Source: Candidatus Angelobacter sp. (GTDB taxonomy: Bacteria; Acidobacteriota; Terriglobia; Terriglobales; Acidobacteriaceae). Taken from it: a stretch of DNA of 57,404 bases. Below are positions 3,554 to 46,498 of this stretch, piece after piece. Each line of letters begins with the position of its first letter. Position 1 is the stretch's first letter. A model generated the notes under the pieces. It saw nothing but the letters and a program-made list of their open reading frames with translations, did no database searches and was not told the DNA's origin. The position numbers and the translations under genes were made by a program. The stretch covers positions 1-57,404 of the forward strand of contig DASTJB010000318.1 of NCBI GenBank assembly GCA_035717005.1, written 5' to 3'.

Positions 3554-4972
3554 TCAATCCTTGTAGTGCCAGTGGCGCACGTCGACAAAGCGCCCGGTCA
3601 CCGCGGCCGCCGCGGCCATGGCCGGGCTCACCAGGTGCGTACGACCGCCGGCGCCCTGGCGGCCTTCAAAATTGCGATTGCTGGTGGAGGCGCAGCGCTC
3701 ACCCGGCTTCAGCCGGTCAGGGTTCATGCCCAGGCACATGGAGCAGCCGGATTCCCGCCATTCGAAGCCGGCGTCAGTGAAAATACGGTGCAGGCCTTCC
3801 TGTTCGGCCGCGCGTTTCACCTGCTGCGAGCCAGGAACGATCATCGCGTGGACTCCACGGGAAACCTTGTAGCCTTTTACGACGCGCGCCGCGCTGCGTA
3901 TGTCTTCCAGACGCGCATTGGTGCACGACCCGATGAATACGCGATCAACGGCGATCTCTTCAATCCGCGTGTGCGGCCGCAAGCCCATGTACTCGAGCGC
4001 GCGGGCGATGCCGTTGCGCTCGGAGTCGCTGGCGCCTCCCTCAGGATCAGGGACTTCTCCCGTTACCGGCGCAGCCATTCCCGGGTTGGTGCCCCAGGTA
4101 ACGAACGGAGCAATCTGCGCGGTGTTGATTTCGACGGTGGAATCGAAGCGAGCCCCCGGATCGGTGCTTAACGTCGTCCAATCTTTTTCCGCCGCGTCCC
4201 AGGCTTTCTCTTTCGGTGCAAAGCGCCGGCCTTTCAGGTAATCGAAAGTTATCTGGTCCGGTGCGACCAGCCCGGCGCGCGCACCGCCTTCGATACTCAT
4301 ATTGCAGATGGTCATTCGCGCGTCCATGGAGAGCGCGCGAATGGCCTCGCCCGAATATTCAATCACGTGACCGGCGGCGCCATCCGTGCCAATCTGCGCG
4401 ATCAGCGCCAGAATCATGTCCTTCGCAGTGACGCCCGGGCCAATCTTGCCGGCGAATTGCACCAGCATCGACTTTGGTTTTTTCTGCACCAGGCACTGCG
4501 TCGCCATCACGTGCTCGACCTCCGAGGTGCCGATCCCGAACGCCAGCGCGCCGAAGGCGCCGTGCGTGCTGGTATGACTGTCACCGCATACGATCGTCAT
4601 ACCCGGTTGCGTCAGGCCAAGTTCGGGGCCGATGACGTGCACGATTCCCTGCTCCGGCGCGTCCAGATCAAACAGGGGCACGCGGAACTCGCGGCAATTT
4701 TTCCTCAACTCCTCCACCTGCGTGCGCGCCAGCGCGTCTTCTATGACCATGCGGTTACCGGCGGTCGGAATGTTGTGATCGAGCGTGGCAAAAGTGAGGT
4801 CAGGCCGGCGCAGTTTGCGCCCGGCTTCACGCAATCCGGCAAACGCCTGCGGCGAGGTGACCTCATGCACCAGGTGCAGATCGATATAAAGGATGGCCGA
4901 GCCCTCAGGCCCGGCGCAGACCACGTGGCGGTCCCAGACTTTGTCGAAGAGGGTGCGGGCAGTCATAGGCAA
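3554..4972 (-). CDS. leuC: 3-isopropylmalate dehydratase large subunit
   Basis: 472-aa aconitase-family protein. It has the CGDSHT and [10 protein letters not shown] Fe-S ligand motifs and sits between leuB and leuD. Confidence 0.95.
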
Positions 4973-4978
4973 AAACTT

Positions 4979-6091
4979 CTACACAGCATGGTATGAGAAT
5001 CTGCGATCGAGCCGGGCGGCAAAGCGCTGCTCCACCAGTTCGCCCATCTCGCGCGTGCTCACTTCGTGCTTGCCCGGGCGCGCCAGATCGGCGGTGACAT
5101 AGCCCTCGTCGAGCACCTGGCGGATTGCCGCCTCCAGGTCCGCGGCCTCATGATGCATGCCGGCCGAAAGGCGCAGCAACATCGCGGCCGAGGCGATCGC
5201 TCCCATGGGGTTCGCGATCCCCTGGCCGGCGATGTCCGGTGCGGAGCCATGCACCGGCTCATACAGATCAACTGCGCCTCCGATGGTTGCCGATGCCAGC
5301 ATACCCAGCGATCCGGTAATGGCGGCGGCTTCGTCGGAAAGAATGTCGCCGAAAAGATTCTCCGTCAGCACCACGTCAAAGCGCGTGGGATTGGTGATCA
5401 GATGCATGGCGCAGGCGTCCACGTACATGTGATCGAGCTTCACGTCAGGATACTCTCTTGCCACCTGGGTGACTGTCCGCCGCCACAGTTGCGAAGTCTC
5501 AAGCACATTGGCCTTGTCGACCGACGTAACTTTCTTGCGGCGAGTGCGCGCCTGCTCAAAGGCGATGTGCGCCACGCGCTCAATCTCTTCCGCGGAATAG
5601 CGCATGGTGTTGAAGGCCGAGTCGCTCTGCTGGTCAAAGCCGCGCGGCTGGGCGAAGTAAAGGCCGCCCAGAAGTTCGCGCACGAAGAGCACGTCGGCGC
5701 CCTCCACCCGCGATCGCTGCAATGGAGAGCAATCAGCGATCGCGGGGAACGAAACGGCGGGCCGCAGGTTGGCAAACCCGCCGAGTGCTGTGCGCAGCCC
5801 GAGCAGGCCGGCTTCGGGCTTCTGCTGTGTGGGCAGATGATCAAATTCGGCGGCGCCCACCGCGCCAAGAAAAACGGCGTCACTCTTCAAGCAGGCATCG
5901 AGCGTGGTTCCCGGCAGCGGTGTGCCGTGGGTGCGGATGGCCGCACCGCCAATGGGCTTTTCGTCGCAAACAAATTCGCAATCGGAAAAATGGCCCACCG
6001 CGCGCAAAATACGCACGGCTTCACGAGTAACCTCCGGACCAACTCCATCACCGGGGAGAACTGTCAATCTGAAACGCATTGAATTCGGCAC
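4979..6091 (-). CDS. leuB: 3-isopropylmalate dehydrogenase
   Basis: 370 aa. The [11 protein letters not shown]-terminus and [12 protein letters not shown] motif mark the isocitrate/isopropylmalate dehydrogenase family. Sits in leu operon context. Confidence 0.95.
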
Positions 6092-15208: not shown

Positions 15209-15727
15209 ATGAACAGAAAAACATTGCCGCTGCTCCTGTCGATTATCTTCGCTATCGCCGCGCAGGCGCAGACCAGCACGGACGGCTGGAGCAAGTTCAC
15301 CAGCGATGCCGGGAAGTTCTCCGCGCTGTTTCCGGGCCAACCTGAGGAGGGTGCTCCGGCCGAAAAAGGCATAGTACTGCATACATTCAGGGTCGTGGCG
15401 CGACCGCGCGTCTATATGGTGCTTTACTCTGACTATCCTGATGCGGACCTGACCCTGGATACCAAGACCAGGCTGCGGGCAGAGCGCGACGGTTTCATTA
15501 AGGGCGCAGCGGAAGGGAAGCTTGTCGCGGAGCGCGAGTTCAAATTCAAACGGGGATCAACGGAACTTCCGGCGCTGGAGTTCGCCTCTGAAGGCGACGG
15601 TATCAATTACAAGAGCATCGTGATTATCGATGGCCGGCGAGTCTACTTTGTGTGCGCCGGCGGCCTGAAAGGCAGCGATTCCACCAGCCAGATCGAACGC
15701 TTTCTGGGGTCGTTTGAGTTGAAGTAA
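15209..15727 (+). CDS. Hypothetical secreted protein (172 aa)
   Basis: Signal peptide MNRKTLPLLLSIIFAIAAQAQ. No family recognised. Confidence 0.6.
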   Translation: MNRKTLPLLLSIIFAIAAQAQTSTDGWSKFTSDAGKFSALFPGQPEEGAPAEKGIVLHTFRVVARPRVYMVLYSDYPDADLTLDTKTRLRAERDGFIKGAAEGKLVAEREFKFKRGSTELPALEFASEGDGINYKSIVIIDGRRVYFVCAGGLKGSDSTSQIERFLGSFELK

Positions 15728-15787
15728 GAACGCGCGAAACGATAGTGGGGCATTTTGAATCGACCCGCGGCCGGCGAAACATCGGGG

Positions 15788-15816
15788 TTGCCTGGGCCAA
15801 ACAGCTGTTGTAAACT
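15788..15816 (+). promoter_or_regulatory. Candidate sigma-70-type promoter (TTGCCT-N17-TAAACT) for the Met/Cys leader transcript
   Basis: Hexamer match and 17-nt spacing only. It would start transcription about 20 nt upstream of the leader ATG. Confidence 0.3.
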
Positions 15817-15844
15817 CTAGTTGATGTTACTTTCTGTCTCCAAC

Positions 15845-15907
15845 ATGGCCATGTGCTGTAAGGCGATGGCTATGTGTGCTCTCCCACAGAGGCAGAGAGG
15901 TTCATAA
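15845..15907 (+). CDS. Met/Cys-rich leader peptide MAMCCKAMAMCALPQRQRGS (20 aa)
   Basis: Read directly: atg gcc atg tgc tgt aag gcg atg gct atg tgt ... taa. There are 4 Met and 3 Cys in the first 11 codons. It ends 28 nt before an intrinsic terminator that precedes a sulfur-amino-acid operon. No clear SD. Confidence 0.55.
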   Translation: MAMCCKAMAMCALPQRQRGS

Positions 15908-15934
15908 GCAAGCATTCATCGAGCAATAATGAAC

Positions 15935-15965
15935 CCGCTGCCTCAGGGCAGCGGTTTTTATTTTT
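15935..15965 (+). terminator. Intrinsic terminator / attenuator upstream of the ThrC-family gene
   Basis: CCGCUGCC-UCAG-GGCAGCGG (8-bp GC-rich stem) followed by UUUUUAUUUUU. It lies 34 nt before the ATG at 15999, so it sits inside a leader rather than at the end of an operon. Confidence 0.7.
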
Positions 15966-15998
15966 CGGGGCTTTCAGGATAAGAACAGGAGAAAGAAG

Positions 15999-17270
15999 AT
16001 GAGCACGGATTTGGGCTATCAACTGCGATGTCGCGAGTGCCAGGCCACATGGGGTAACCAGCCGATTTCGTTTTGCCAGAATTGTTTTGCCCCGCTGGAA
16101 GTGGCTTATGACTGGGAGCGCATCGGCAAACGGATCAGCAAAGATGAGATTGCGCGGCGGCCGGCAAATCTGTGGCGCTATCGCGAGCTGCTACCTCTAC
16201 CGGACCAATACAACGCTGGCCCACCGGCCGGGTTCACGCCGCTGGTGAAGGCGGCGAACCTGGGCGAGACGCTGCGCAGCCGCTCGCTTTACATCAAGAA
16301 TGATGCGGTCTGCTTCCCTACTCTAAGCTTCAAAGATCGCGTAGTGGCGGTGGCCCTGGCGCAGGCGCGGAATTTCGGTTTCGAAGTGGTGAGCTGTTCT
16401 TCCACTGGCAATCTGGCCAATGCGGTGGCGGCGCAGGCGGCGCAGGCCGGGTTCCGCGCCTGCATCTTTATCCCCGCCGATCTAGAGCCCGCGAAGGTGC
16501 TGGGCACGCAGGTGTACGGGGCGGAGATCGTGCGCATTGACGGCAACTACGACCAGGTAAACCGGCTGTGCTCGCAGATAGCGGACAAGCATCGCTGGGG
16601 CTTTGTGAACGTCAACCTGCGGCCGTATTACGCCGAAGGCTCGAAGACCGTGGGCTATGAGATCGCTGAGCAGATGGGCTGGCGCCTGCCGGACAACGTG
16701 GTGGTGCCGATGGCCGGCGGGTCACTGATCACCAAAATCCATAAGGCATTCAAGGAGCTGATTGCGCTGGGGCTGGTGGACGACAAGCAGGTGAAATTCT
16801 TCGGCGCGCAGGCCACGGGGTGCAGTCCCATCAGCTCGGCGGTGAAGGCCGGACGCAATGAGATTGAGCCGCAGAAGCCGGCGACGATCGCGCGCTCGCT
16901 GGCCATCGGCAATCCGGCTGATGGGTACTATGCGGCCAGGATGATCGTGGGCAGCGGCGGCTGGGCGGAAGATGCCAGTGATGCGGAGATCGTGGATGGT
17001 ATGACGCTCCTGGCCGAAAGCGAGGGCATCTTCACCGAGACGGCGGGCGGAGTCACTGTGGCTTCAGCGCGCAAATTGTTTGCCCAGGGACGAATCAAGC
17101 CGGAGGAGACGACGGTGCTGTGCATCACCGGCAACGGACTGAAGACGACGGACGCGCTGGCCGGGCGGTTTGAAACCGCGGAGCCGATTGCGCCGAAGCT
17201 GGCGACGTTCGAACAGTATCTCGAGAGCGAGTTCGCCGGCGCCCGCGCGGCAAAGAAAGGAGCAGCGTAA
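15999..17270 (+). CDS. PLP-dependent threonine-synthase-family enzyme (paralogue 1) with an N-terminal Cys4 zinc ribbon. It is probably a sulfur-carrier-dependent homocysteine (or cysteine) synthase rather than ThrC.
   Basis: CRECQ...CQNC ribbon and the PLP lysine motif LSFKDR. The stop is immediately followed (17271) by a GG-terminated MoaD/ThiS-like gene. A second, canonical thrC lies at 20669. Confidence 0.8.
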   Translation: MSTDLGYQLRCRECQATWGNQPISFCQNCFAPLEVAYDWERIGKRISKDEIARRPANLWRYRELLPLPDQYNAGPPAGFTPLVKAANLGETLRSRSLYIKNDAVCFPTLSFKDRVVAVALAQARNFGFEVVSCSSTGNLANAVAAQAAQAGFRACIFIPADLEPAKVLGTQVYGAEIVRIDGNYDQVNRLCSQIADKHRWGFVNVNLRPYYAEGSKTVGYEIAEQMGWRLPDNVVVPMAGGSLITKIHKAFKELIALGLVDDKQVKFFGAQATGCSPISSAVKAGRNEIEPQKPATIARSLAIGNPADGYYAARMIVGSGGWAEDASDAEIVDGMTLLAESEGIFTETAGGVTVASARKLFAQGRIKPEETTVLCITGNGLKTTDALAGRFETAEPIAPKLATFEQYLESEFAGARAAKKGAA

Positions 17271-17543
17271 ATGAGCGTGACAGTTTCCATCCCCAGCGCT
17301 TTCCGCCGCCATACCGAAGGGCTGGACCGGTATGACTGCGCAGCGGTCGACCTGAACGGAGTGCTTGACGCCCTGGGCGCCCGCTTCCCCGAGCTGAAGC
17401 CGCATCTGCGCGACGAACAGGGCCAGGTCCGGCGGTTCCTGAACATCTACGTGAATGACGAGGACATCCGCTTCCTGGACAAGAACTACAGGTTCAAGGA
17501 AGGCGACGAGGTCACGCTGGTGCCTTCGATTGCGGGCGGGTAG
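17271..17543 (+). CDS. MoaD/ThiS/CysO-type sulfur-carrier protein ending in Gly-Gly
   Basis: 90 aa with C-terminus ...EVTLVPSIAGG-stop. The ATG directly abuts the stop of the upstream gene (TAA ATG). Confidence 0.85.
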   Translation: MSVTVSIPSAFRRHTEGLDRYDCAAVDLNGVLDALGARFPELKPHLRDEQGQVRRFLNIYVNDEDIRFLDKNYRFKEGDEVTLVPSIAGG

Positions 17544-17642
17544 CGGTCCGGACCGGCCAGCGCCAGATGCCGGCGAGTCCGTTTTTCGTCGGATTCGCTT
17601 ATCCGGGCTTCCCGCCCGGAACTGCTGGGAAACCTGCGGCGA

Positions 17643-17679
17643 GCGACGGGTTTTTCCACCTGCAAACCGGCGCTTTTTT
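17643..17679 (+). terminator. Probable intrinsic terminator of the ThrC-like/sulfur-carrier operon
   Basis: Imperfect GC-rich stem (GCG.C.GGUUU / AAACC.G.CGC) followed by UUUUUU at 17674-17679. Confidence 0.45.
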
Positions 17680-17680
17680 C

Positions 17681-17709
17681 TTGACAGAAAGGCGAACAAA
17701 TGGTAAATT
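17681..17709 (+). promoter_or_regulatory. Sigma-70-type promoter TTGACA-N17-TAAATT
   Basis: Perfect -35 hexamer, 17-nt spacer, and a -10 hexamer with T1, A2 and T6 conserved. Located in an AT-rich patch directly after the terminator. Confidence 0.45.
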
Positions 17710-17840
17710 TAATTATTTTGGGGCGGGGGTGGAACCGTGATCCTTGAACGGCGGGCTTTGCCTGTAAACCACGTTTTTCTTACCACTTACGGACGCTCGC
17801 TGTCCATTGTTGATTTTCCGCTTCGACCCTCTTCAACCCT

Positions 17841-17926
17841 ACGCCAAACTGGGATGCCCTGGGATGCACCCCTCTCAAGTGCACGCCAATCTGGGATGAG
17901 CTGGGAGGGGGGTACCGGGTGGGATG
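17841..17926 (+). repeat. Direct-repeat array: ACGCCAA(A/T)CTGGGATG twice, 42 nt apart, and five copies of (C/G)TGGGA(T/G)G
   Basis: CTGGGATG at 17849, 17859 and 17891; CTGGGAGG at 17901; GTGGGATG at 17919. The two pairs are each spaced exactly 10 nt. The array lies between two promoter-like sites. Confidence 0.6.
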
Positions 17927-17961
17927 TTACCGGAGTTTCTAAAGTCCAGGTGAGGCTTTTC

Positions 17962-17990
17962 TTGACTGGCCGGGAAAGCCGGGCTATAGT
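17962..17990 (+). promoter_or_regulatory. Sigma-70-type promoter TTGACT-N17-TATAGT for the thr leader/operon
   Basis: Near-consensus hexamers with a 17-nt spacer, 9 nt upstream of the first leader ATG. Confidence 0.55.
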
Positions 17991-17998
17991 CGCGGGTA

Positions 17999-18100
17999 AT
18001 GCAGGTGAGCGTCCGCAAATTCGCCAGGGCCATGAGCTTGACAACAACAAGCACAGGCACAGCTACATCCAGGCGACAATCGGGCGAGCCGGCAGCGTAA
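17999..18100 (+). CDS. Thr-rich leader peptide (33 aa from 17999, or 22 aa from the ATG at 18032: MSLTTTSTGTATSRRQSGEPAA)
   Basis: Read directly: ... atg agc ttg aca aca aca agc aca ggc aca gct aca tcc .... There are six Thr in ten codons, all ACA. It ends 27 nt before a strong terminator that precedes thrB. Confidence 0.6.
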   Translation: MQVSVRKFARAMSLTTTSTGTATSRRQSGEPAA

Positions 18101-18127
18101 GCAAGATCAGCAATTATAAGTTCCTGA

Positions 18128-18160
18128 CCCACTCGCCCAAGGCGGGTGGGTTTTGTTTTT
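18128..18160 (+). terminator. Intrinsic terminator / attenuator upstream of thrB
   Basis: CCCACUCGCC-CAA-GGCGGGUGGG (10-bp stem with one G-U) followed by UUUUGUUUUU, 52 nt before the thrB ATG. Confidence 0.75.
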
Positions 18161-18211
18161 GAGCTTCTAGCCAAAACGGGACTGAGGCGTGAGCGGAAGG
18201 AAAGACCGAGA

Positions 18212-35352: not shown

Positions 35353-38300
35353 ATGCCGGGACAATCTGGGACGCTCGAAACCATAGCCCGGCATATCGGC
35401 CTGGCGCTCCAGCCGCTCAAAGACAGGCTTACTTCTGACCATGCCATCGATCTTCTGGCGGAGCTGGGCCTTGAGTTCCCACCCCAACTCTTGCAGCCCG
35501 CTTTCGTCAACGCCTTGAAGGCGGGCGCGAACGCAGCTGGCGCGCTTCCCGGCACGATTACGCAGCTTACGAATGCAATCGACACCGACAATGAAGGACA
35601 GATCCTAAGCTCTGGGGCGCAGCTCATTGGGGAAATCGCAGCCGTTATCACCGCCGTGGGGCAGATCGGAACTGCACTAAAGAACCAGGCTGGCAGCCTG
35701 CCGGGAATGAACGCGTCGGAGGTATCCAACTTTGCCGATGCATTGCCAGGAAAATTGCTGGGTTACCTGGTAGTTTCTTACCTGGAATCGGTTGTGCCCG
35801 GGGTCGTAAGCATAGGCAACCTCCTTGGATTCCTGGATTACCTTCCCAACGCCGGCGTCGACGGAGATCCCGCGCATCCTGGCTTTATCGTGCGTGAACT
35901 GCAATTAGGAAATTTGGGAGATCTCCTTACGTCTCCTGACAAGTTGCTGAAGAAGCTGTACGGATGGGGTGATCCCGCCTTCGATGGCAAGACCCTCATC
36001 AGCAGATTGAGCACGTCTCTGGGACTTCTGGGAGTATCCTCACAGGTTTCGGCGACTGGGGATTCGTTGAACGTGTTCCTGTTGACTCTGGGAGTCGCGC
36101 CGGCAACGAATCCGCCTGGGCTGTCCGCCACCTTAGCCGCAACACTCCCATCGGGCCTGGACATCACTCTGCCTCTGAGCCAAACGTGGTCTGTCCATGT
36201 ACAGGCACAAGCAGCACTCGCTTCGGGTTTGAAAGCCACCATCACGCCACCGGCAAGTGTCACTCTAAAGCCTCCTTCGGGTACGGTGAATGGACAGTTG
36301 CAGGCAGACGTCGTCGCCAAGGGCGCGGATGCCTCTCATCCGATCATCATCATCGGACAGACCGGCGGCAGCCGGCTGCAGACCAATTCGTTCACCTTCG
36401 GCATGGGGGTGAAGATTACTTTTGATTCGGGTTCCGGCACGGCCACCGCCGAACCGACGATCCGAATTGAGATCAAAGGCGGCAAAGTCGTCATCGACAT
36501 GTCCAATGCCGACGGCTTCCTGGCAACGGTGCTCTCCGGAGTTCATGTCGAGGCCGGGTTCGACCTGACGATCACCTGGGCCCCCGATACCGGAATCCAC
36601 ATCCAGGGCGGCGCGCAGCTGGAAATCGATCTTCCACTGCATCTCACGCTCGGCCCAATCAGTTTGCCGACGTTATATCTGGTGGCCGGCGCGAACGATA
36701 GCGGGCTGCCGATTGAAATCTCTGCGGCGCTCGGCCTCACTCTGGGCCCGATCCAGGCCGCGGTTGATCGCGTCGGCGTCAAAGGGTTGATCACCTTTCC
36801 CGATCACGGGGGAAATCTTGGACCGGCCAATCTCGCCATCGACTTCAAACCACCGAGCGGGCTTGGCATTGCCATTGACGCGGGCGTGGTGGCCGGCGGC
36901 GGGTACATCTCATTCAATCCCGATAAGGGCCAGTATGCCGGCGTGCTCGATGTATCTCTGGCGGAGATCGTTCAGGTCAAGATCATCGGCGTGCTCGACA
37001 CCATTCTGCCCGACGGCTCTCACGGTTTCTCTTTCCTGCTGATCATCACTTTTGATTTTCCGCCCATCCAGCTGGGATTTGGCTTTACTCTGAACGGCGT
37101 TGGCGGGTTGGGCGGCGTGAACCGGACGATGAATACTGACGCGCTGCATGCCGGCTTCCGCGCGCATACGCTTAATTCCGTTCTATTCCCGCCGGACCCG
37201 ATCGCCAATGCGCCGCAGATCATCAGCAACATCGAAAACTTCTTCCCCCCCGCCGAAGGGCGCTATCTCTTCGGACCCATGCTGGAGATTGGCTGGGGCA
37301 CACCAACACTGATCACGCTGGCGGTGGGCGTGATCCTGGAAGTTCCGGACCCGGTGCGTCTGGCGCTGCTGGGACTGATTGATGCCGGCCTGCCGACCAC
37401 CGAACTGGCGCTCATCGAGCTGCACATTGATGTGCTGGGCATCCTCGATTTCGGCGCCAAAACGCTTTCCATCGACGGCTCACTCTACGACTCGCGTGTG
37501 CTGATCTTCTCTCTTGCCGGCGACCTGGCGCTGCGGCTCTCCTGGGGCGACAATCCAAATTTCATCTTCTCGCTTGGCGGGTTCAACCCGCACTTCAATA
37601 CCACCGGGCTCGATGTTCCCAAGATGCACCGGCTCTCGGTAAGCATCGGCGATGGCGACAATCCGCGCATCAGCGCCAACAGCTATTTCGCCATCACCTC
37701 GAATACTCTGCAGTTTGGCTCCAATGTTGAGGCTTATGCCTCCGCCGCAGGATTCACCATCCATGGGTGGCTCGGCTTTGACGTATTGATTATTTTTTCG
37801 CCATTCTCCTTCGAGTTCGACTTCTCCGCGGGATTTGATATCTCATTCGAAGGAGTGAGCCTGTGCGGCCTGAGAGTGGACGGCTTGTTCTCCGGCCCGC
37901 GGCCCTGGCACCTGCACGGCAGCGCCACGATCGATATTTTGTTCTTCAGTGTCAGCGCGTCGCTGGACCTCACCTGGGGTGACAGCACGCCGGCCATCCT
38001 GCCGAAGAAGCCCGTGCTGCCCGATCTGCTCCCGGCTTTGCAGGACCCACGCAACTGGAGCACCGCGCTGCCGAGTAATACTACGCAGGCGGTCACGCTT
38101 TCCACGCCCAAGCCGGATGATAAAACGCTGCGCGTCCATCCCATGGGCACGCTGAGCGTGCGTGAGAACATTGTTCCCCTGGACCTGCCGATTACGCGCT
38201 ACGGAAATGCAACGCCATCAGACGGAAATCTTTTCTCCATCAATGATGTGCAGATCGACGGCCAGGAAGAAACCAGGCAGAGCTTCCAGGATTATTTCGC

Positions 38301-38784
38301 CGCTGGGCAGTTCCTGAGCCTGAGTGACGCGGACAAGGTCAGCCGACCCAGCTTCGAAAAATATAACGCCGGAGTGCAGATCGGTTCCAATGCCATTCTA
38401 TCGGGCGCCGACTCGCCGCGGACGGTGTTCTACGAAGAGCGGTACATCGATGAGCCAAATGATTTTTCGCGCTTCGCCCGGCGCTATGGAATGCTGGCGG
38501 ACGTTCATCTCGCCCTCACCATGCAGGGCGCGGGATTTGCTTCGCCCCTGAAGAACAGCGGGCTGTTTAAATATGCAAAGGGCAACAGCGAGGCCGCCGT
38601 CACGACCCAGGACCCGGCTTACGTTGTGGCGCATGTGGAAGACCTTTCGGTGCGCAGCGATATCGTCTCCTCATCCGGCGGCACGTACTTCCACGCTCGC
38701 GCGGCGCTGGACTCCTACCTGGTCCTGCATCCCGAGGAGACCAACAACCTGCAGATTGTTCCCGTGCACGAGGTGACGCCATGA
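35353..38784 (+). CDS. Giant hypothetical protein A (1143 aa): helical N-terminus and a Gly-rich, beta-strand-like core and C-terminus
   Basis: Uninterrupted ORF with GGGGAGGAG upstream of the ATG. No signal peptide and no catalytic motif seen. It probably belongs to a family catalogued only as a domain of unknown function (from memory, unverified). Confidence 0.85.
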   Translation: MPGQSGTLETIARHIGLALQPLKDRLTSDHAIDLLAELGLEFPPQLLQPAFVNALKAGANAAGALPGTITQLTNAIDTDNEGQILSSGAQLIGEIAAVITAVGQIGTALKNQAGSLPGMNASEVSNFADALPGKLLGYLVVSYLESVVPGVVSIGNLLGFLDYLPNAGVDGDPAHPGFIVRELQLGNLGDLLTSPDKLLKKLYGWGDPAFDGKTLISRLSTSLGLLGVSSQVSATGDSLNVFLLTLGVAPATNPPGLSATLAATLPSGLDITLPLSQTWSVHVQAQAALASGLKATITPPASVTLKPPSGTVNGQLQADVVAKGADASHPIIIIGQTGGSRLQTNSFTFGMGVKITFDSGSGTATAEPTIRIEIKGGKVVIDMSNADGFLATVLSGVHVEAGFDLTITWAPDTGIHIQGGAQLEIDLPLHLTLGPISLPTLYLVAGANDSGLPIEISAALGLTLGPIQAAVDRVGVKGLITFPDHGGNLGPANLAIDFKPPSGLGIAIDAGVVAGGGYISFNPDKGQYAGVLDVSLAEIVQVKIIGVLDTILPDGSHGFSFLLIITFDFPPIQLGFGFTLNGVGGLGGVNRTMNTDALHAGFRAHTLNSVLFPPDPIANAPQIISNIENFFPPAEGRYLFGPMLEIGWGTPTLITLAVGVILEVPDPVRLALLGLIDAGLPTTELALIELHIDVLGILDFGAKTLSIDGSLYDSRVLIFSLAGDLALRLSWGDNPNFIFSLGGFNPHFNTTGLDVPKMHRLSVSIGDGDNPRISANSYFAITSNTLQFGSNVEAYASAAGFTIHGWLGFDVLIIFSPFSFEFDFSAGFDISFEGVSLCGLRVDGLFSGPRPWHLHGSATIDILFFSVSASLDLTWGDSTPAILPKKPVLPDLLPALQDPRNWSTALPSNTTQAVTLSTPKPDDKTLRVHPMGTLSVRENIVPLDLPITRYGNATPSDGNLFSINDVQIDGQEETRQSFQDYFAAGQFLSLSDADKVSRPSFEKYNAGVQIGSNAILSGADSPRTVFYEERYIDEPNDFSRFARRYGMLADVHLALTMQGAGFASPLKNSGLFKYAKGNSEAAVTTQDPAYVVAHVEDLSVRSDIVSSSGGTYFHARAALDSYLVLHPEETNNLQIVPVHEVTP

Positions 38785-41700
38785 GCGCTCCGCTGGGCCG
38801 CTATCATTTCCTGAGCTGGGCGCGCCGCGGCGTGGGCGCCAGCGTAGCCAACGTGGACAACGGTGGCGCTCTTCCCAGCCGCGCCGGCCTAAGCGTCCAG
38901 CTTTCCCTGCAGGTGAATGGCGCTCCCAGTCCCCAGCAGCCCACGCCCATGCCGGTGCAGATGTTCGGGCCGGGCGATGTGATCGGAATCGATCCGCGGC
39001 ACATCATCCGCACCGAGCCGCGAAATTTTACCGTCAATTTCGAGCCCAATTATCTGTGCGGGGTGGAGTTCGATACACCCGATCTACCGTGGCTGTTCAC
39101 GCCGGCGGCGCCCAAAGGCGATCAGCTTCGCCCGTGGCTGGCGTTGATCGCGCTGAAGCCGGACGAGCTCAAGCTGCCTAACATCGCACCGAATCCTCTT
39201 CCGGTGGTTGAAGTGCAGGCCATGAGCGCGCTGCAGGACCTTTCCGATTCGTGGAACTGGGTGCACGTGCAGGTCAGCGGAGATACGCCGCTCACCGATT
39301 CGATGACCAGCGCTCCGGGGAACGTGATCTCGCGGCTGTTGTGCCCGCGCAGGCTCGATCCGGAGACTCATTACAAGGTTTTTCTGGTTCCGGCATTCGA
39401 GATCGGGCGGCAGGCGGGGCTGGGGAAGGACGTCTCCGGAATTGCGACCGCCGATCCGGCGTGGACGAAAGCTACCGTCGCGCCGCTCACGCTTCCTTTC
39501 TATTACCAATTTGAATTCAATACGAGCGATGAAGGCGACTTTGAATCGCTGGTGCGGCGGCTGACTCCGCGCGTCCTGCCGGCGGAAGTAGGGCAGCGGC
39601 CGATGGACGTTTCGCAACCGGCCCCGCACATCGCCCCAGCAGGACCACCGCCTCTGGGACTTGAAGGCGCGTTGCACAGCGTGCTGACCAAGCCCACCGA
39701 CTGGAAAGATCCGGTCAAGACGAATTTTCAGACGGACGTGCAAACGTTCATCAATCATCCGCAGCTCTCGACGGATGATCCGGCGAATCCCAATCCTGAC
39801 GATCCGGTGATTGCGCCTCCGATTTACGGCCGGTGGCACGCCGCTGTCCAGAGCGTGGACCGCACCGCGGCGGGGTGGGTGAACGATTTGAATCTCGATC
39901 CGCGCAACCGCAGCGCCGCCGGCATGGGCACGCAGGTTGTCCAGGATGAGCGCACGCAACTGATGGCCTCCGCCTGGCAGCAGGTGGATGGCGTGCGCCA
40001 GGCCAACGAACTGCTTCGCCAGGCGCAGCTTGCCCGGGCGGCGTTGCAGCAGATCCATGTGCATGAATTGCAGCCCGCCACGGCGGAGACGTTGATGACC
40101 ATGACGGCGCCGCTGCACTCGCGGCTGATGGCCAGCCCGCGAACTGTGCTGGCGACTGTGAGAAGCAGCCGCGTACCGGAACGTCTGCTCTCCGGCGCCT
40201 ATCGCCGGGCGACGCGGCCGCGGCGCCGGGTCGGGCCTTCGCCCAAGACGCGAACTCCTTTGCTGGCCCGCGTAAACTCAGGCGAGGTCGCAATTGTGCC
40301 GCCCGCCAAACCTCCGGGCGGAATGGTCTCGATCGATCAGATCTCCGACAATTTCGCTCCGCCGTGGATCAAGACGCTGGCCAAGTACTGGAAGTGGATC
40401 CTGCTGGTGGTCCTGTTGCTGCTGGTGCTGGCAATCATCGTCGTAGGAGCGGTTGCCGGAGGGGCAGCAGCAGGCGCGGTAGTGGTGGCGGCGGTGGTCA
40501 TTGCAGCCGCAGTGTGGCCGGCGATCAAGAAATTGCTCGACAAGGCCCAGGCCGCCAATGAGCTGAGCCCGTCAGGCTTCACGCCGGCGGCGGTGGCAAA
40601 TGCTCCTCCGAACCCTAACTTCACGGTGACTACGCCAGGCACCGCGCCCTCGACGGGCGCCAGCGGCCCGGACTCAACGCAAGCCGTGGCCTTCCGTGCC
40701 GCCACCAGTGACGTGTTTACGGCGTTCCAGGCATTTCCGGCCGATCCGCCCCTGGCGCCTTCGCTCGAAATGGCAACGCTGAAGAGCACGGTGCTGATGC
40801 GGATCGATCCCGGGGTGACCGTGCCCAAGCGGGTGCAGTATCTGATCACCTTCTCGCCGAACTTCACCTGGCTGTTGCCGGACCTGCTGGAGCCGATCAT
40901 GGCAGCGCCGGAATTTCCGCAGCCAATGTACGCTCCGCTGCGCGATCTCTCGCCCGACTACGTGCTGCCCGGAGTCGAGCTGGTACCGCCGGACACGCTG
41001 GGACTTCTGCTCACCAACCATGAATTTATTGAAGGTTACATGGTCGGCCTGAACCACGAAATGGCGCGCCAGCTATTGTGGAATGATTATCCGACGGACC
41101 AGCGCGGCAGCTACTTCCGCCAGTTCTGGGACGTGAGCGCCTACGTTCCGCAAAAAGGCGATCCCAGCGATCCGGCGAAGCTGCGCGAATTGCTCAAGGA
41201 CATCCCTCCCGTTCACACTTGGCCCAAGCCGCTGCCGCTGGGCGAGCATCCCAACCGCACGGACATTGTCGAAAACAATGTTGTGCTCCTGGTGCGGGGC
41301 GAGCTGTTCAAGCGCTATCCGAACGCCATTGTTTACGCCGGCAAGGCCAAACGAGCGGTGGACGGCACGCGTGTGCTCGACGAAACCGACGAGCGCTATC
41401 CCATTTTCCGGGGCACGCTGCCCTCTGACATCACCTTCCTGGGTTTCAACCTGAGCCTGGACGATGCTCGCGGCGGGACTGCGCAATCGCCGGAGGGCTT
41501 CTTCTTCGTCTTCCAGCAGCAGCCGTCGGAGCCGCGCTTTGGACTGGAACCGAACGAAGATGCCACTCCGATCGCCCACTGGGCGGAGCTGGCCTGGACC
41601 AACTTCGGCGTGGCCGGTGGCGGAGACAAAGCGCGCCCCGCGGTCCTTCGCGCCGCCGATCCTGTTTTCCAGCTTCCCGACCTGGGAAAAACCACGCGGG

Positions 41701-41969
41701 GCAAGACGATCGCCAACAGCCCATGGCGGCTGGCTTCGCAGGTATTTTCCATCGTGCTCGCGAACGTGAAGCTCCCGGACTTTCTTTCCGCGAAGCTGAA
41801 TCCGGTGCGGGTGACCATTCCTCCGGGCGGAGGAAATCCCAACCTGCCGGACTACACTCCGGAAGACCCCAACAACAACTGGGGCGTGAACAGTGCGCAG
41901 ACGGCGTACATTCTTTTGCGCCTGCCGTTCCGCATTCTGATTCATGCCGACTTGATGCTGCCAAAATGA
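38781..41969 (+). CDS. Giant hypothetical protein B (1062 aa) with a central hydrophobic hairpin of about 46 aa
   Basis: ATGA overlap with gene A. The hydrophobic stretch WKWILLVVLLLLVLAIIVVGAVAGGAAAGAVVVAAVVIAAAVWPAI is encoded at 40389-40526. No signal peptide. Confidence 0.85.
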   Translation: MSAPLGRYHFLSWARRGVGASVANVDNGGALPSRAGLSVQLSLQVNGAPSPQQPTPMPVQMFGPGDVIGIDPRHIIRTEPRNFTVNFEPNYLCGVEFDTPDLPWLFTPAAPKGDQLRPWLALIALKPDELKLPNIAPNPLPVVEVQAMSALQDLSDSWNWVHVQVSGDTPLTDSMTSAPGNVISRLLCPRRLDPETHYKVFLVPAFEIGRQAGLGKDVSGIATADPAWTKATVAPLTLPFYYQFEFNTSDEGDFESLVRRLTPRVLPAEVGQRPMDVSQPAPHIAPAGPPPLGLEGALHSVLTKPTDWKDPVKTNFQTDVQTFINHPQLSTDDPANPNPDDPVIAPPIYGRWHAAVQSVDRTAAGWVNDLNLDPRNRSAAGMGTQVVQDERTQLMASAWQQVDGVRQANELLRQAQLARAALQQIHVHELQPATAETLMTMTAPLHSRLMASPRTVLATVRSSRVPERLLSGAYRRATRPRRRVGPSPKTRTPLLARVNSGEVAIVPPAKPPGGMVSIDQISDNFAPPWIKTLAKYWKWILLVVLLLLVLAIIVVGAVAGGAAAGAVVVAAVVIAAAVWPAIKKLLDKAQAANELSPSGFTPAAVANAPPNPNFTVTTPGTAPSTGASGPDSTQAVAFRAATSDVFTAFQAFPADPPLAPSLEMATLKSTVLMRIDPGVTVPKRVQYLITFSPNFTWLLPDLLEPIMAAPEFPQPMYAPLRDLSPDYVLPGVELVPPDTLGLLLTNHEFIEGYMVGLNHEMARQLLWNDYPTDQRGSYFRQFWDVSAYVPQKGDPSDPAKLRELLKDIPPVHTWPKPLPLGEHPNRTDIVENNVVLLVRGELFKRYPNAIVYAGKAKRAVDGTRVLDETDERYPIFRGTLPSDITFLGFNLSLDDARGGTAQSPEGFFFVFQQQPSEPRFGLEPNEDATPIAHWAELAWTNFGVAGGGDKARPAVLRAADPVFQLPDLGKTTRGKTIANSPWRLASQVFSIVLANVKLPDFLSAKLNPVRVTIPPGGGNPNLPDYTPEDPNNNWGVNSAQTAYILLRLPFRILIHADLMLPK

Positions 41970-44900
41970 GTACACATCCTCCCAATCCGAATCCGAACCA
42001 GCCTCCCGCTCCGGGTCCGAACCAGCCTCCCGCTCCGGCGCCCGGAGGGAACGGGCAGCCGCACGCTCTGGATGCAGCTACGCCCGTCCTGTTCCTTCCC
42101 GTCAACATCGAAACCCGCTTCATGGATGCCGGCGTGAGGGGAGGCTCGGAGCTCTGGCTGCGCGTCTATCCCGATCAGATTGCCATCAACTCACATGAGC
42201 CCGAGCTCACGGACCAGGAGATCGCCGACGGAAAAGTTTACTGGGACGCCGTGTGGCGGGCGGGCAAGCCCCCGGCCAGGGAGGAGGACGTGAAAGCGCC
42301 GTGGCGCGGTCTGGCTGCGCGGTACGGTGGGCCGCGCGCCGCGTGGATCGCACTGACCATGACGCCGACGAACGCGCTGCAGCAGCCCGCGGCGCCGACA
42401 GCGGAAGGCGCCAATCCGGTCCCTCCGCCGAGCTATCGCACGCCGCCGACACACTCAGGATCGTGGACCAAGCCGGCGATCGCGGCAGCGCTGCCCGATT
42501 TCTGGAAGGTGGCCGCAATCTCCGGGACGGCAGTTCTCACGGCGCAGGGCGGGCCGATCACGCCCGATCTCGCTGTGGGAATGACGCCCGGCGTGGCCTT
42601 CCCGGCCGGGTCGCCGGTCGATCCGGGCATGCAGTGGCTGGTGGATTTTGACGCCGCCGTGAAAGCAGGCATGGCATTGAAAATCCCATTGACGGCGCAA
42701 CAAAGGAACACCGGATTTGACCGCATCTTTGTTTATGGATTGCGTTCCCGGGGCGCGTCCGGCAGCCAGACGCTGACCGAACTTTTGAATGCGCACCACT
42801 ACACCGACGGCTTTTCACTGGTGGCGCAAGGCGCTCCCACCAACAACACTCCGGACGCCGACGCCGCGTATTCGCGCAAGGACCCGGACCAGGAGGCCAG
42901 TTATAAGGTTGAGCGCAGCGATCCGCTGAATCAGGATGCGGCCGCAGACGGCAATGCTTTTGCCAATTTGATCGGCATTGATCCGGCCACCATGGCCCAC
43001 GTCGGCGAATCCGACGGCACGGATGAGCGCAATGGCCGTGACATGTTCACCGCGCTCTGGCCGGCGACTCTGGGATATTTCTTTTCGCAGATGATGGCTG
43101 ACGTCTTCACGCCGGCGCAGATCGAAACAGCGCGGCAATACGTGCTGGCCAATGCGCTGCCGCGCGGGCCGTTGCCGGCCTTCCGCGTGGGACGCACGCC
43201 CTACGGCGTCCTTCCCATCACCTCACTGCGGCGTTATCCCCAGGGAGAAAGAACTTTTGTCGGATCGATCGAGCCGGCGCTGGTAGATTTCATCTCAAAG
43301 CTGTGGCCGACCTGGCTGGCCAGCGCCAATGGGGCGCCGCACATGCAGAACTCGGGCGATCCTGACGCGCAGCTGGTGCAGGTGCTGGGCATGGACGCCA
43401 GCTCGATGACCTTCCGCGGGCGCCAGGTCCTTGGCGATGACTTCCTCTGGAATTACATCAATTTCCAGGGCATCGCGAGTTCGCTGGCGAATCCCTGGTG
43501 GCTGAGCCATCTGGCGCGCGGACGGCAACTGCTGGACAAGTTCGGCTTCAACACCTGGGACCCGCGCGTGATCCATCTGGGCCTGGCGGAGAAGTCGTAT
43601 CCCGTGCCATTTCCCACGGTGCAGACAGGCGCGCTCTCTGAAACGGACCCGCTGAAAGCCGACGCTGACCTGGGCGGCGGCACGAAGGGAAATTACATTC
43701 GGTGGCTGCGGCAGGCGGCGGTGAGCGACATCCAGGCGGACAACTATCCCGGGCCCAAACCCACGGCGCTGCTGTATAAGATCCTGCGCCAGTCCGTCCT
43801 GCTCGATTATGCGAAGCTGGCCACGTTCGCCGAAGTAAACGCAGCTCGGCTGCAGTTTGCACAGGTGCGCGAGCAGGAGATCATCGGCGTGGTGCCGCAA
43901 CTCGAAACCCAGGCTGCGGCCCAGGACCTTCCGAAGGTCAGCGTGTGGGAGGTGCTGGCGCGTCCTTCGATACCGAATCCGAAGCTCAGTTGGGCTGAGT
44001 ACCTGGTGAACCTCGATCCTCCGCCGCAATCTCCTTTTGCCCAGCTGACGGAGCTGCGAGCGTGTCTTGACCGGCTGGCGAAGCTCTCCACCGCGGAGCT
44101 GGACCGGCTGCTGACCGAGACTCTGGATGCGTGCAGCCATCGCCTGGACGTATGGGCCACAGCGATTGCAACCGCGCTGCTTGGCCGCACGCGCGCTGGA
44201 AAAAATAACGGAGTGCATCTTGGCGCCTTTGGATGGGTGGAAGAGGTGCGCCCCGCGGCTTCGCGTCCCGCAGTAGTGGGCGTGGAGCTGGACGCGGTGC
44301 GCGCTCTGGACCGCCGCCGTTCAACCACGCTGAAGCGCGAATTGAACCTGCCCGTACCAGTGCAGCCGCTTCAGGACAACGGCGGCTACATCTTTGCGCC
44401 GTCACTGACCCAGGCCGCGACAGCCGCTGTGCTTAGGAATGGCTACATGACCCACAAGGGCACCAGCCAGGAAGGGCTGCTCTCAATCGATCTCTCTTCC
44501 GAGCGCGTCCGCAACGCGCTGCTTCTGCTGGAAGGCGTGCAGCAGGGCCAGAGCCTGAACGCTTTGCTGGGCTACCTCTTCGAATCGGGACTGCATACGC
44601 TGCAGCTGGACAAGTACGCGCAACCTTTCCGCGACCGTTTTCCCATTGTCGCCAACAAGCTCACGCCGTCGAGCGATCCGAGCGAGTCGGTGGCCGCTTC
44701 AAACGTGGTGGATGGGCTGGCCCTGCGCACGGCATGGGACACCGGCCAGCTTGCTCAGGGCGGGAACTGGGGCACGGGATTGCCCGCTCCCGGCGCGGAC
44801 CAGAACGCCGTGATCGGGCTGCTCGAGACGATCGACGATTATGCCGACGCGCTGGCCGATCTCTCCATCTCCGAAGCGGTCTTCCAGATCATTCGGGGAA

Positions 44901-46498
44901 ACTTCGGCCGCGCCGGCACGCTGATGGATGCGATCTCCAAAGGAGTGCGCCCTCCCGATCCGGATGTGGTGAACACGCCGCGCGGAGGACTGGACCTTAC
45001 GCATCGGGTGGCGCTGCTCTGCGCCGGAGATCCGGCTGTGAATGCGGTATGGAGTGGAGTGACGGCGCATCCTCGCGCCGCGGCCGAGCCGTGGCTGGAC
45101 GCCTGGGTGAGCCAGCTTCTTCCCGATCCCGCAACCGTGATCTGCAATGTGACGTTTGACGATGCCGGCGGCAACCCCAACACGCAGCAGGTCACGCTGG
45201 CCGATCTGGACGTGGGCCCGCTGGATGTGATTGCCATGGCGGACGTAGGGCAAAGCGCGCAGCAAGGCGAACTGGAAAGACGGATCGCGTTTGCCGCCGC
45301 TCTGCCGGCCGGCGCCAGCAACCTCAAGATCGATTTCCAGGCGCCAGCCGGCTCGGTAAGCTTCCCGGATGTTTTCTTCCTGGCCAAATCGCTGCGGAGC
45401 CTGATCAGCTCGGCGCGCGCGCTCACGCCGCAGGACCTGACCCGCCCTGAAGTCAAAGCGGCCGATGCCGGAGGCGCAGTGAAGATCGCGGATCTTCACG
45501 ATCGCGCGGACAATGCCGTCAAGAGTCTGAAGAACGATTTGAAGAATTTAAACACCGCTGTGGCCGGACTGCCGGGCGCTCCAGGTCCGGTGCGCACAGC
45601 CCTGCTGGCGTGCAGCTCTTACGGGGTGGCCGGCTCGATACCTCTTTCGAGCAGCGGCGCCGATCCGGGGCTTGCCGACCAGGCCGCGGGTGTTACCAAG
45701 CAATTGCAGGAGCGAGTGGACACCGCTTCAAAGATCAACCTGGCAACTGCTCTGGCCAAGGCGGATGTTCCGGCGTTAACCGGAGTGCTGACCACCATAT
45801 TCGGCGATGACTTTGTTGTTCTGCCGCGCTTCACGCCGCCGGACTTCACGAAGCTGAAGGCGGCATTCGGCCAGTCCGACAATCTGGTTGCTGCGGACCC
45901 GGAGGCCCCTTCGCGGTGGCTGCTGCAACTGGCGCACGTGCGGCCGGGAATCTCGCGGCTTGATGCGGCGCTTTCTCTGGCAGAGCTTCTGGGAGCGCAG
46001 GACGTTGCGCCTCCCGATCTGCTGCTGGGACAATTGCCTGAGGTCGACAACGACAAGTGGCTGGGGCTGGGCATCGACACCTCCAAGCCTCCCGACAAAG
46101 GCCGCGTGGCCTTCGCTTGCGTGACGCAGGGCGATCCGGTCAATGACAACAGCTATGCCGGCCTGCTGATCGATGAATGGCCGGAACGAATTCCTTCAAC
46201 CCAGGAAAACGCCGCCGTGGCTTTCCACTATGAGGAGCCGAAGGCACGAGCGCCGCAGGCGCTGCTGCTGGCCGTCTGCCCCGACAACCGCGAGACGTGG
46301 GACGATGACCTGGTCACCGGCGTGCTTCAGGAGGCGCTGGAGCTGGCCAAAATACGCACGGTGGACCTGGACAGCGTGCAGGAGGCCGGCCAGATTCTGC
46401 CTGCTCTTTATTTTGCTCTGAACTTGCAGGGCGCCACCGTCTCCACACATTTCGCCAATTTCAAGGAGTTTAAGCGTGCAGCTCCAGTCATTCGCTAA
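41966..46498 (+). CDS. Giant hypothetical protein C (1510 aa) with a Pro-rich repetitive N-terminus
   Basis: The ATG at 41966 overlaps the gene B stop (ATGA). The N-terminus is MSTHPPNPNPNQPPAPGPNQPPAPAPGG. No recognisable enzymatic motif. Confidence 0.85.
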   Translation: MSTHPPNPNPNQPPAPGPNQPPAPAPGGNGQPHALDAATPVLFLPVNIETRFMDAGVRGGSELWLRVYPDQIAINSHEPELTDQEIADGKVYWDAVWRAGKPPAREEDVKAPWRGLAARYGGPRAAWIALTMTPTNALQQPAAPTAEGANPVPPPSYRTPPTHSGSWTKPAIAAALPDFWKVAAISGTAVLTAQGGPITPDLAVGMTPGVAFPAGSPVDPGMQWLVDFDAAVKAGMALKIPLTAQQRNTGFDRIFVYGLRSRGASGSQTLTELLNAHHYTDGFSLVAQGAPTNNTPDADAAYSRKDPDQEASYKVERSDPLNQDAAADGNAFANLIGIDPATMAHVGESDGTDERNGRDMFTALWPATLGYFFSQMMADVFTPAQIETARQYVLANALPRGPLPAFRVGRTPYGVLPITSLRRYPQGERTFVGSIEPALVDFISKLWPTWLASANGAPHMQNSGDPDAQLVQVLGMDASSMTFRGRQVLGDDFLWNYINFQGIASSLANPWWLSHLARGRQLLDKFGFNTWDPRVIHLGLAEKSYPVPFPTVQTGALSETDPLKADADLGGGTKGNYIRWLRQAAVSDIQADNYPGPKPTALLYKILRQSVLLDYAKLATFAEVNAARLQFAQVREQEIIGVVPQLETQAAAQDLPKVSVWEVLARPSIPNPKLSWAEYLVNLDPPPQSPFAQLTELRACLDRLAKLSTAELDRLLTETLDACSHRLDVWATAIATALLGRTRAGKNNGVHLGAFGWVEEVRPAASRPAVVGVELDAVRALDRRRSTTLKRELNLPVPVQPLQDNGGYIFAPSLTQAATAAVLRNGYMTHKGTSQEGLLSIDLSSERVRNALLLLEGVQQGQSLNALLGYLFESGLHTLQLDKYAQPFRDRFPIVANKLTPSSDPSESVAASNVVDGLALRTAWDTGQLAQGGNWGTGLPAPGADQNAVIGLLETIDDYADALADLSISEAVFQIIRGNFGRAGTLMDAISKGVRPPDPDVVNTPRGGLDLTHRVALLCAGDPAVNAVWSGVTAHPRAAAEPWLDAWVSQLLPDPATVICNVTFDDAGGNPNTQQVTLADLDVGPLDVIAMADVGQSAQQGELERRIAFAAALPAGASNLKIDFQAPAGSVSFPDVFFLAKSLRSLISSARALTPQDLTRPEVKAADAGGAVKIADLHDRADNAVKSLKNDLKNLNTAVAGLPGAPGPVRTALLACSSYGVAGSIPLSSSGADPGLADQAAGVTKQLQERVDTASKINLATALAKADVPALTGVLTTIFGDDFVVLPRFTPPDFTKLKAAFGQSDNLVAADPEAPSRWLLQLAHVRPGISRLDAALSLAELLGAQDVAPPDLLLGQLPEVDNDKWLGLGIDTSKPPDKGRVAFACVTQGDPVNDNSYAGLLIDEWPERIPSTQENAAVAFHYEEPKARAPQALLLAVCPDNRETWDDDLVTGVLQEALELAKIRTVDLDSVQEAGQILPALYFALNLQGATVSTHFANFKEFKRAAPVIR

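Follow-up and report, generated by a model that had tools for sequence, protein, structure and literature searches.

The region between positions 15788 and 15998 of contig DASTJB010000318.1 from Candidatus Angelobacter sp., analysed here over a stretch of 57,404 nucleotides (nt; the window), probably contains a methionine-sensing transcription attenuator of the leader-peptide type. In such an element a ribosome translating a short open reading frame (ORF) would determine whether a terminator or an antiterminator forms in front of a ThrC-like gene. All of the sequence-level features that characterize leader-peptide attenuators were found: a conserved ORF, cognate codons within it, an overlapping terminator and antiterminator, and a third helix (1:2) that competes with the antiterminator. 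The preliminary description of this region had suggested that translating ribosomes attenuate an operon for sulfur amino acids. The conserved ORF and helices, the lack of an Rfam match at the leader and the presence of SAM-I (S-adenosylmethionine, SAM) riboswitches at orthologous loci support that suggestion.

Conservation of the leader ORF and its probable start

A protein-guided genome scan gave 80 loci orthologous to the downstream gene, and the leader element was present at 24 of them, where the downstream protein is 80–89% identical. A metagenome-wide scan with a pattern derived from the invariant columns gave 59 contigs, of which 51 were real and 8 were chance matches. All 50 metagenome copies with enough downstream sequence precede the ThrC-like gene. 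Together, the 24 genomes and 51 metagenome contigs, from 'Ca. Angelobacter'-like Terriglobia, provided 67 distinct full-length variants, among which the sequences flanking the leader are unalignable. Alignment of orthologous regions had been put forward in the preliminary description as a check on the proposal; the small ORF, its in-frame Met codons, its stop codon and both alternative helices proved to be conserved in the relatives.

The ORF originally described, with 20 codons and with four Met and three Cys within the first 11, is indeed present, but its start at 15845 is probably not the true one. The probable start is the ATG at 15824, 21 nt upstream, which gives an ORF of 27 codons. Of the 364 short ORFs in the window, the leader ORF has the highest Met/Cys content. 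Four or more internal Met codons are found in two short ORFs of the window, compared with a mean of 0.33 and a maximum of 1 in 40 shuffles. Conservation is a stronger argument than this count, because the ORF, the terminator and the complementarity between them are kept in 67 variants despite flanks that cannot be aligned.

Several observations indicate that the reading frame itself is maintained. A short ORF with a start and a stop was present in 67/67 variants, with a length of 27 codons in 61, 26 codons in two and 22 codons in four (the L014 group). Independent 3-nt deletions at different places in L008 and L092 preserve the frame, and the L014 group, which has the only +1 insertion, also has an in-frame TGA where region 2 begins, region 2 being the segment near the end of the ORF that takes part in two of the helices described below. 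Nearly all ATG trinucleotides within the ORFs (325/326) are in frame 0. Where the triplet following GKTTCA is in frame, it is always TAA or TAG (63/63 variants); in the four variants with an earlier end to the ORF it reads TCA. The middle segments of five lineages are only 37–66% identical; each nevertheless carries one or two in-frame ATGs, against 0.14 expected from composition (per 12 codons), and out-of-frame ATGs are absent from all five.

Met and Cys had both been proposed as regulatory codons, and of the two only Met is upheld by the comparison. Three to four internal Met codons occur in all 67 variants. The number of Cys codons ranges from 0 to 4, and the peptide of L020, MLISVSNMAMRPMHMRASVYVSRQTVS, has none. 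Codon 18 is conserved as NGU with a free first base, and judged from this pattern its 'Cys' is incidental. Of the proposed regulatory codons, Met is thus the conserved one, and the variable Cys may be a secondary input.

An informal look at codon-position periodicity was uninformative; the sequence of the leader peptide is not itself selected, and RNA constraints dominate. Since AUGGCCAU is self-complementary and the main group forms an inner hairpin of 9–10 bp, the possibility that the Met codons are a mere by-product of a CAUG-rich hairpin was considered. It was ruled out as the sole cause: divergent lineages lose or alter the hairpin (z-scores up to +0.08) and retain the in-frame ATGs. Contig L109 carries leader copies in inverted orientation at both of its ends, at 250–314 (− strand) and 3879–3943 (+ strand), which is probably an assembly artefact. 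The second, inverted copy has a 1-nt insertion that breaks the frame and was set aside.

No Shine-Dalgarno (SD) sequence precedes the leader ATG, a point that the preliminary description had listed as a weakness. In 64/64 distinct upstream regions, a hexamer of the form TAnnnT ends 6–9 nt ahead of the conserved ATG, counted to its A, and TTG(C) is found 17–19 nt upstream of this −10-like hexamer in 59 of the 64 distinct promoter regions. The base preceding ATG 15824 is a purine in every one of the 64 upstream regions. Sequence conservation begins exactly at this ATG, which is invariant and in frame in every variant. The hexamers would function as a sigma-70-type promoter, the transcript most likely starts at, or 1–3 nt before, AUG 15824, and the leader ORF is probably leaderless. 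A leaderless start would account for the absent SD sequence and remove that weakness. Leaderless genes have been predicted at 9.7%–19.4% in three Acidobacteria analysed by Zheng et al. (PMC3160421).

Alternative helices and the proposed switch

A strong terminator, with an 8-bp GC stem and a U tract in front of the structural gene, had been noted and is present at 15935–15965 as described. From its T run to ATG 15999 there are 33 nt, SD included. This leaves no room for a separate promoter, and the operon therefore depends on read-through. The complementarity of GAGGCAG (15889–15895) to CTGCCTC (15938–15944) was likewise found, and the antiterminator suggested on that basis is conserved; it is longer than first thought, with 15889–15905 pairing with 15929–15944. 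It comprises 14 pairs arranged as two 7-bp helices. In addition, region 1, near the 5′ end of the ORF, pairs with region 2 in a helix of 11 bp. By position, the region 1:2 helix, the antiterminator (regions 2 and 3) and the terminator are mutually exclusive. Across the 67 sequences, pairing was maintained at 93.9% in the region 1:2 helix, 96.7% in the antiterminator and 97.7% in the terminator stem. One pair of the region 1:2 helix shows a double change from U-A to G-C in 10 sequences, and an A-to-G change in region 2 of the L014 group retains pairing with both partners.

In folding calculations the free RNA adopted the region 1:2 helix plus the terminator (−56.1 kcal/mol, compared with −48.6 kcal/mol when the antiterminator was forced). 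When region 1 was masked, as it would be by a ribosome early in the ORF, the antiterminator formed. A ribosome modelled at codons 15–18 placed the antiterminator ahead of the terminator by ∼2 kcal/mol, and a ribosome modelled at the stop codon masked region 2, so that only the terminator was possible.

These features suggest the following mechanism. RNA polymerase would initiate at the sigma-70-type promoter to give a transcript that begins at, or 1–3 nt before, AUG 15824, and the 27-codon ORF would be read without an SD sequence by a ribosome that loads on the 5′ AUG and trails the polymerase. If no ribosome is present, or once it has been released, region 1 (15830–15840) would pair with region 2 (15889–15899), the terminator would form and the operon would be off by default. 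With ample methionine, the ribosome would reach the stop codon at 15905–15907 and cover region 2 together with GGUUCAU; the antiterminator could not form, the terminator would, and the operon would again be off. When Met-tRNA is scarce, the ribosome would stall either at Met codons 8/10, covering region 1, or at Met codons 15/17, just ahead of region 2. Either stall would leave region 2 free to pair with region 3 (15929–15944), which would block the terminator and allow the operon to be transcribed.

Several points weigh against this interpretation. The transcription start, translation of the leader ORF and the response to methionine are all deduced from the sequence. Covariation is sparse, because the helices hardly vary. 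With the ribosome modelled at codons 8–12, the terminator was favoured by 0.2–1.7 kcal/mol; the margin is small, and the model at these codons has to rely on the co-transcriptional order of folding. Severe methionine starvation would also impair initiation, which uses formylmethionyl-tRNA, and the ribosome-free default is termination; for a sensor in which Met serves initiation as well as elongation, such starvation is an awkward regime. The element occurs at a single locus type: the metagenome-wide pattern scan did not find it before other genes, and hence no regulon backs the signal assigned to it. Finally, AAC AUG GCC AUG UGC and an unpaired CAAC are nearly invariant, at synonymous sites too. 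Such nucleotide conservation, like the NGU pattern of codon 18, goes beyond codon sensing. It indicates that the RNA is constrained by more than the three helices, in ways for which the model accounts only in part. A pause hairpin and an AUGGCC/GGUUCAU pairing are candidates for their source. The latter pairing was returned by RNAalifold; every pair in it is invariant, and so it gives no covariation signal.

Table 1. Positions of the leader element, the downstream genes and the second attenuator-like element in the window
Feature	Position	Strand	Details
−35-like hexamer	15788–15793	+	TTGCCT; 8/12 consensus matches, too weak for a consensus promoter scan
−10-like hexamer	15811–15816	+	TAAACT; TAnnnT kept in relatives
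Leader ORF, probably leaderless	15824–15907	+	27 codons plus stop, MLLSVSNMAMCCKAMAMCALPQRQRGS; contains the 20-codon ORF
Region 1 (anti-antiterminator 5′ strand)	15830–15840	+	CUUUCUGUCUC; codons 3–6; pairs with 15889–15899 in the minimum-free-energy fold
Shorter ORF of the preliminary description	15845–15907	+	Peptide MAMCCKAMAMCALPQRQRGS, 20 codons
Codons of the shorter ORF	15845–15907		ATG GCC ATG TGC TGT AAG GCG ATG GCT ATG TGT GCT CTC CCA CAG AGG CAG AGA GGT TCA TAA
Regulatory codon block	15845–15877	+	Met codons 8, 10, 15, 17; Cys codons 11, 12, 18
Region 2	15889–15905	+	GAGGCAG...GGUUCAU; 3′ strand of 1:2 helix and 5′ arm of antiterminator; ends at stop UAA 15905–15907
Region 3	15929–15944	+	AUGAACC-CG-CUGCCUC; 3′ arm of antiterminator; overlaps 5′ arm of terminator
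Intrinsic terminator	15935–15965	+	Stem CCGCTGCC/GGCAGCGG, 15935–15942/15947–15954, 8 bp, 7 G-C; T tract TTTTTATTTTT, 15955–15965
SD sequence	15987–15991	+	AGGAG; before the ThrC-like gene
ThrC-like pyridoxal phosphate enzyme gene, MetM-like	15999–17270	+	423 amino acids; Pfam PALP; NCBIfam thrC 273 bits
ThiS/MoaD-type sulfur-carrier gene, MetO-like	17271–17543	+	90 amino acids; Pfam ThiS 1e-10; product ends ...IAGG
Second attenuator-like element	17962–18162		Promoter TTGACT-17 nt-TATAGT, 8 nt, ATG 17999; before thrB-ask-thrC-hom
Thr-rich ORF	from ATG 17999		33 codons, MQVSVRKFARAMSLTTTSTGTATSRRQSGEPAA; six Thr in ten residues

The downstream operon, its orthologs and alternative explanations

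The ThrC-like protein encoded behind the leader has an N-terminal CxxC...CxxC motif and scores 290 bits against PRK08197, under the model cutoff of 303. Next along, beyond the sulfur-carrier gene, are genes for thrB, aspartokinase, thrC and homoserine dehydrogenase; thrB makes O-phosphohomoserine. The gene pair fits the recently described MetM/MetO route, in which O-phosphohomoserine and a protein thiocarboxylate are converted to homocysteine by a ThrC homolog (10.1101/2024.10.14.618325). Most likely, the MetM-like and MetO-like genes form a putative two-gene operon for thiocarboxylate-dependent homocysteine synthesis. Many database entries for this ThrC-like protein (P0019, P0020, P0059, P0065 and others) are 440–478 rather than 423 amino acids long. 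Start codons called too early, within the leader/terminator region, probably account for the extra length, and gene calls that carry the ThrC-like gene across the leader are probably wrong. The spacer of ∼580 nt that follows the carrier gene (17544–18126) is not conserved in relatives. A 141-amino-acid ORF at 17737–18162 is unlikely to be a gene, since it has no Pfam match, a low-complexity translation and no conservation. At 17681–17709 there is a second promoter-like site, TTGACA-17-TAAATT.

The remaining orthologous loci provide information on the signal. At 56/56 of them (L024 and L026–L080; 69–76% protein identity), a SAM-I riboswitch (RF00162, 65–78 bits) is located just upstream of the ThrC-like gene, at a distance of ∼130–390 nt. 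The consistent presence of SAM-I before these distant orthologs ties the operon to methionine/SAM, and a signal related to Met or SAM is therefore to be expected at the leader. An Rfam scan, named in the preliminary description as the way to exclude a known riboswitch, gave no match for the leader element: no riboswitch, T-box or leader family was found at the leader at gathering score in a search of the whole window. When 15650–16100 was searched at E values up to 10, only chance-level matches were obtained: one to STnc50 on the minus strand, whose 26.9 bits fall short of the cutoff of 55, and others to a flavivirus xrRNA model and two miRNA models. A known RNA family was rejected on these grounds. 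Rfam searches of the leader-type control loci L001, L014, L020 and L021 also returned nothing, and the same search recovers SAM-I in the 56 orthologous loci. The clean split between the two kinds of locus points to a single event in which, as the distribution suggests, the riboswitch was replaced by a leader peptide in one clade. Matches to Acido-Lenti-1 RNA (RF01687) were observed in L034 (2598–2643), L038 (2511–2556) and L079 (4818–4863), and those in L034 and L038 sit just upstream of the SAM-I riboswitch.

The same position of SAM-I in the orthologs raises the question of whether the leader could itself be a new class of riboswitch. The RNA enclosed by the region 1:2 helix, together with the helix itself, would then bind SAM or a related metabolite, which would stabilize the helix, free the terminator and turn the operon off, the ORF being incidental or secondary. 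The logic would resemble that of the S-box, in that the 3′ strand of P1 is common to the antiterminator; near-invariance extends over ∼30 nt, synonymous sites and the unpaired CAAC among them, and an inner hairpin is formed in most variants. On the other hand, Rfam gave no match with E values allowed up to 10, and the segment between the P1 strands is 37–66% identical across lineages, with z-scores from −4.6 to +0.08 and without a common fold, which speaks against an aptamer. The conserved frame, the in-frame ATGs, the frame-dependent stop, the in-frame indels and the 5′-terminal ATG are features that an aptamer does not need. The element precedes one gene family only, and a Thr-codon analog of the same layout lies within the same window. 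A riboswitch in place of the attenuator is accordingly unlikely. The same low chance is given to a dual sensor, in which the nearly invariant RNA core (UCUGUCUCCAACAUGGCCAUGUGC plus GGUUCAU) or the invariant nascent peptide SNMAMC directly senses a metabolite, for instance SAM or methionine, besides or instead of ribosome stalling for want of Met-tRNA. It is the unexplained RNA-level invariance that keeps these two readings alive. If real, a dual sensor would place a new riboswitch, or an arrest peptide that senses a metabolite, inside a translated leaderless ORF.

Selection of the helix by a trans-acting factor appears very improbable. This could be a TRAP- or PyrR-like protein acting on AUG/UGY triplets, or an uncharged tRNA as in a T-box, and the repeated AUG triplets, the conserved alternative helices and the existence of Met-specific T-boxes in other phyla would fit such a factor. 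However, Rfam gave no T-box match, T-boxes are far longer than this element, a binding protein has no need of strictly in-frame ATGs, a conserved start or a frame-dependent stop, and the adjacent genes include no candidate regulator. Equally hard to credit is an independent small gene (for a micropeptide rich in Met/Cys, with a role in, say, metal or redox biology) or small RNA with its own terminator, the operon being expressed by unregulated leak-through: the ORF and terminator do form a compact unit with its own promoter, and the N-terminal MLLSVSN and the MAMC residues are well conserved, but protein-level conservation is absent from the 3′ third of the peptide (in the L014 group the ORF ends five codons early and the frame is shifted there), the conserved 14-bp complementarity between the end of the ORF and the terminator arm would be pointless in a plain gene, the downstream gene lacks space for a promoter of its own, and the element is strictly tied to one operon.

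A threonine-rich counterpart and relation to known systems

The second attenuator-like element of the window precedes the threonine genes (Table 1). Near the 3′ end of its Thr-rich ORF, GGGCGAG is complementary to CUCGCCC in the 5′ arm of a strong terminator at 18126–18152. Among the relatives retrieved, L025 alone shares this synteny, and it has a homologous Thr-rich leaderless ORF with a terminator at 5000–5098. The Rfam Thr_leader model did not match the Thr element at gathering score. From the two elements it appears that the lineage uses leaderless leader-peptide attenuators, each with the amino acid expected for its operon.

Elsewhere in the window, very large ORFs of 1143, 1062, 1591 and 590 amino acids are encoded at 35353–38784 and in the neighbouring 38781–48248, with a family match (DUF6603) for the first only. 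Two tRNA genes lie at the end of the window, at 57114–57185 and 57260–57331 (− strand; Rfam tRNA, 65.8 and 71.1 bits).

Among the closest parallels to the methionine leader are the classical attenuators (trpL, hisL, thrL, leuL, pheL and ilvL of Proteobacteria; trp, leu and ilv of Actinobacteria). These likewise have a short ORF rich in codons for the end product, helices 1:2, 2:3 and 3:4, and a terminator immediately ahead of the first structural gene; their stop codon is positioned such that a terminating ribosome masks region 2, and the default fold leads to termination. In contrast to them, the present leader has Met codons with variable Cys, is probably leaderless, belongs to a member of the Acidobacteriota and matches no Rfam leader. 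In addition, its region 1 is upstream of the regulatory codons. Methionine genes are controlled by SAM riboswitches, Met T-boxes or repressors, and a classical terminator/antiterminator switch based on Met codons in a leader peptide is, to our knowledge, essentially undescribed. The open-access papers searched contained no established transcriptional attenuator of this kind for Met.

Compared with SAM-I (S-box, RF00162), the leader shares the position, the pathway, the logic of terminator, antiterminator and anti-antiterminator, and the off-by-default output. It differs in its length of ∼80 nt, in the absence of a sequence or structure match and in having no conserved core fold. The presumed signal is Met-tRNA charging as read by the ribosome, rather than SAM bound by RNA. 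In a survey of attenuators, methionine came up only for SAM riboswitches and for a T-box ahead of a gene for a methionine transporter (PMC2965389), and earlier surveys found no RNA element at Met operons in Actinobacteria (PMC1262725).

In concept, the nearest relatives are two actinobacterial systems. The polycysteine leaderless ORFs of mycobacteria (the 'Cys ribulon') are also leaderless first cistrons upstream of sulfur amino acid genes, in which a sulfur amino acid is sensed by stalling and the stalled ribosome relieves base pairing. Their mechanism is translational, with the SD of the next gene sequestered, and they contain runs of consecutive Cys codons (Canestrari et al., 10.1101/834739), whereas the output here would be a terminator/antiterminator decision and Met, not Cys, is conserved (L020 lacks Cys). 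In Streptomyces lividans TK24, a leaderless 'metL' with interleaved Met and Cys (…ARCMCRRMCAF) was predicted before metNIQ; the authors found no typical Rho-independent terminator, and the prediction concerns a single genome (PMC8079986). Both metL and the present leader are predicted leaderless Met/Cys short ORFs upstream of a methionine-related operon. Unlike the present leader, metL precedes a transporter and not a biosynthetic operon, and the two share no sequence similarity.

If confirmed, the attenuator would mean that charged tRNA-Met, and not only SAM, can be read by the translating ribosome for the control of methionine synthesis. It would also be a case, confined to one orthologous locus and one bacterial class, of a leader peptide taking the place of a riboswitch. 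Leader-peptide attenuation, in a leaderless form, would extend to the Acidobacteriota, a dominant yet poorly studied soil phylum, and the Thr element suggests that such control may be common there.

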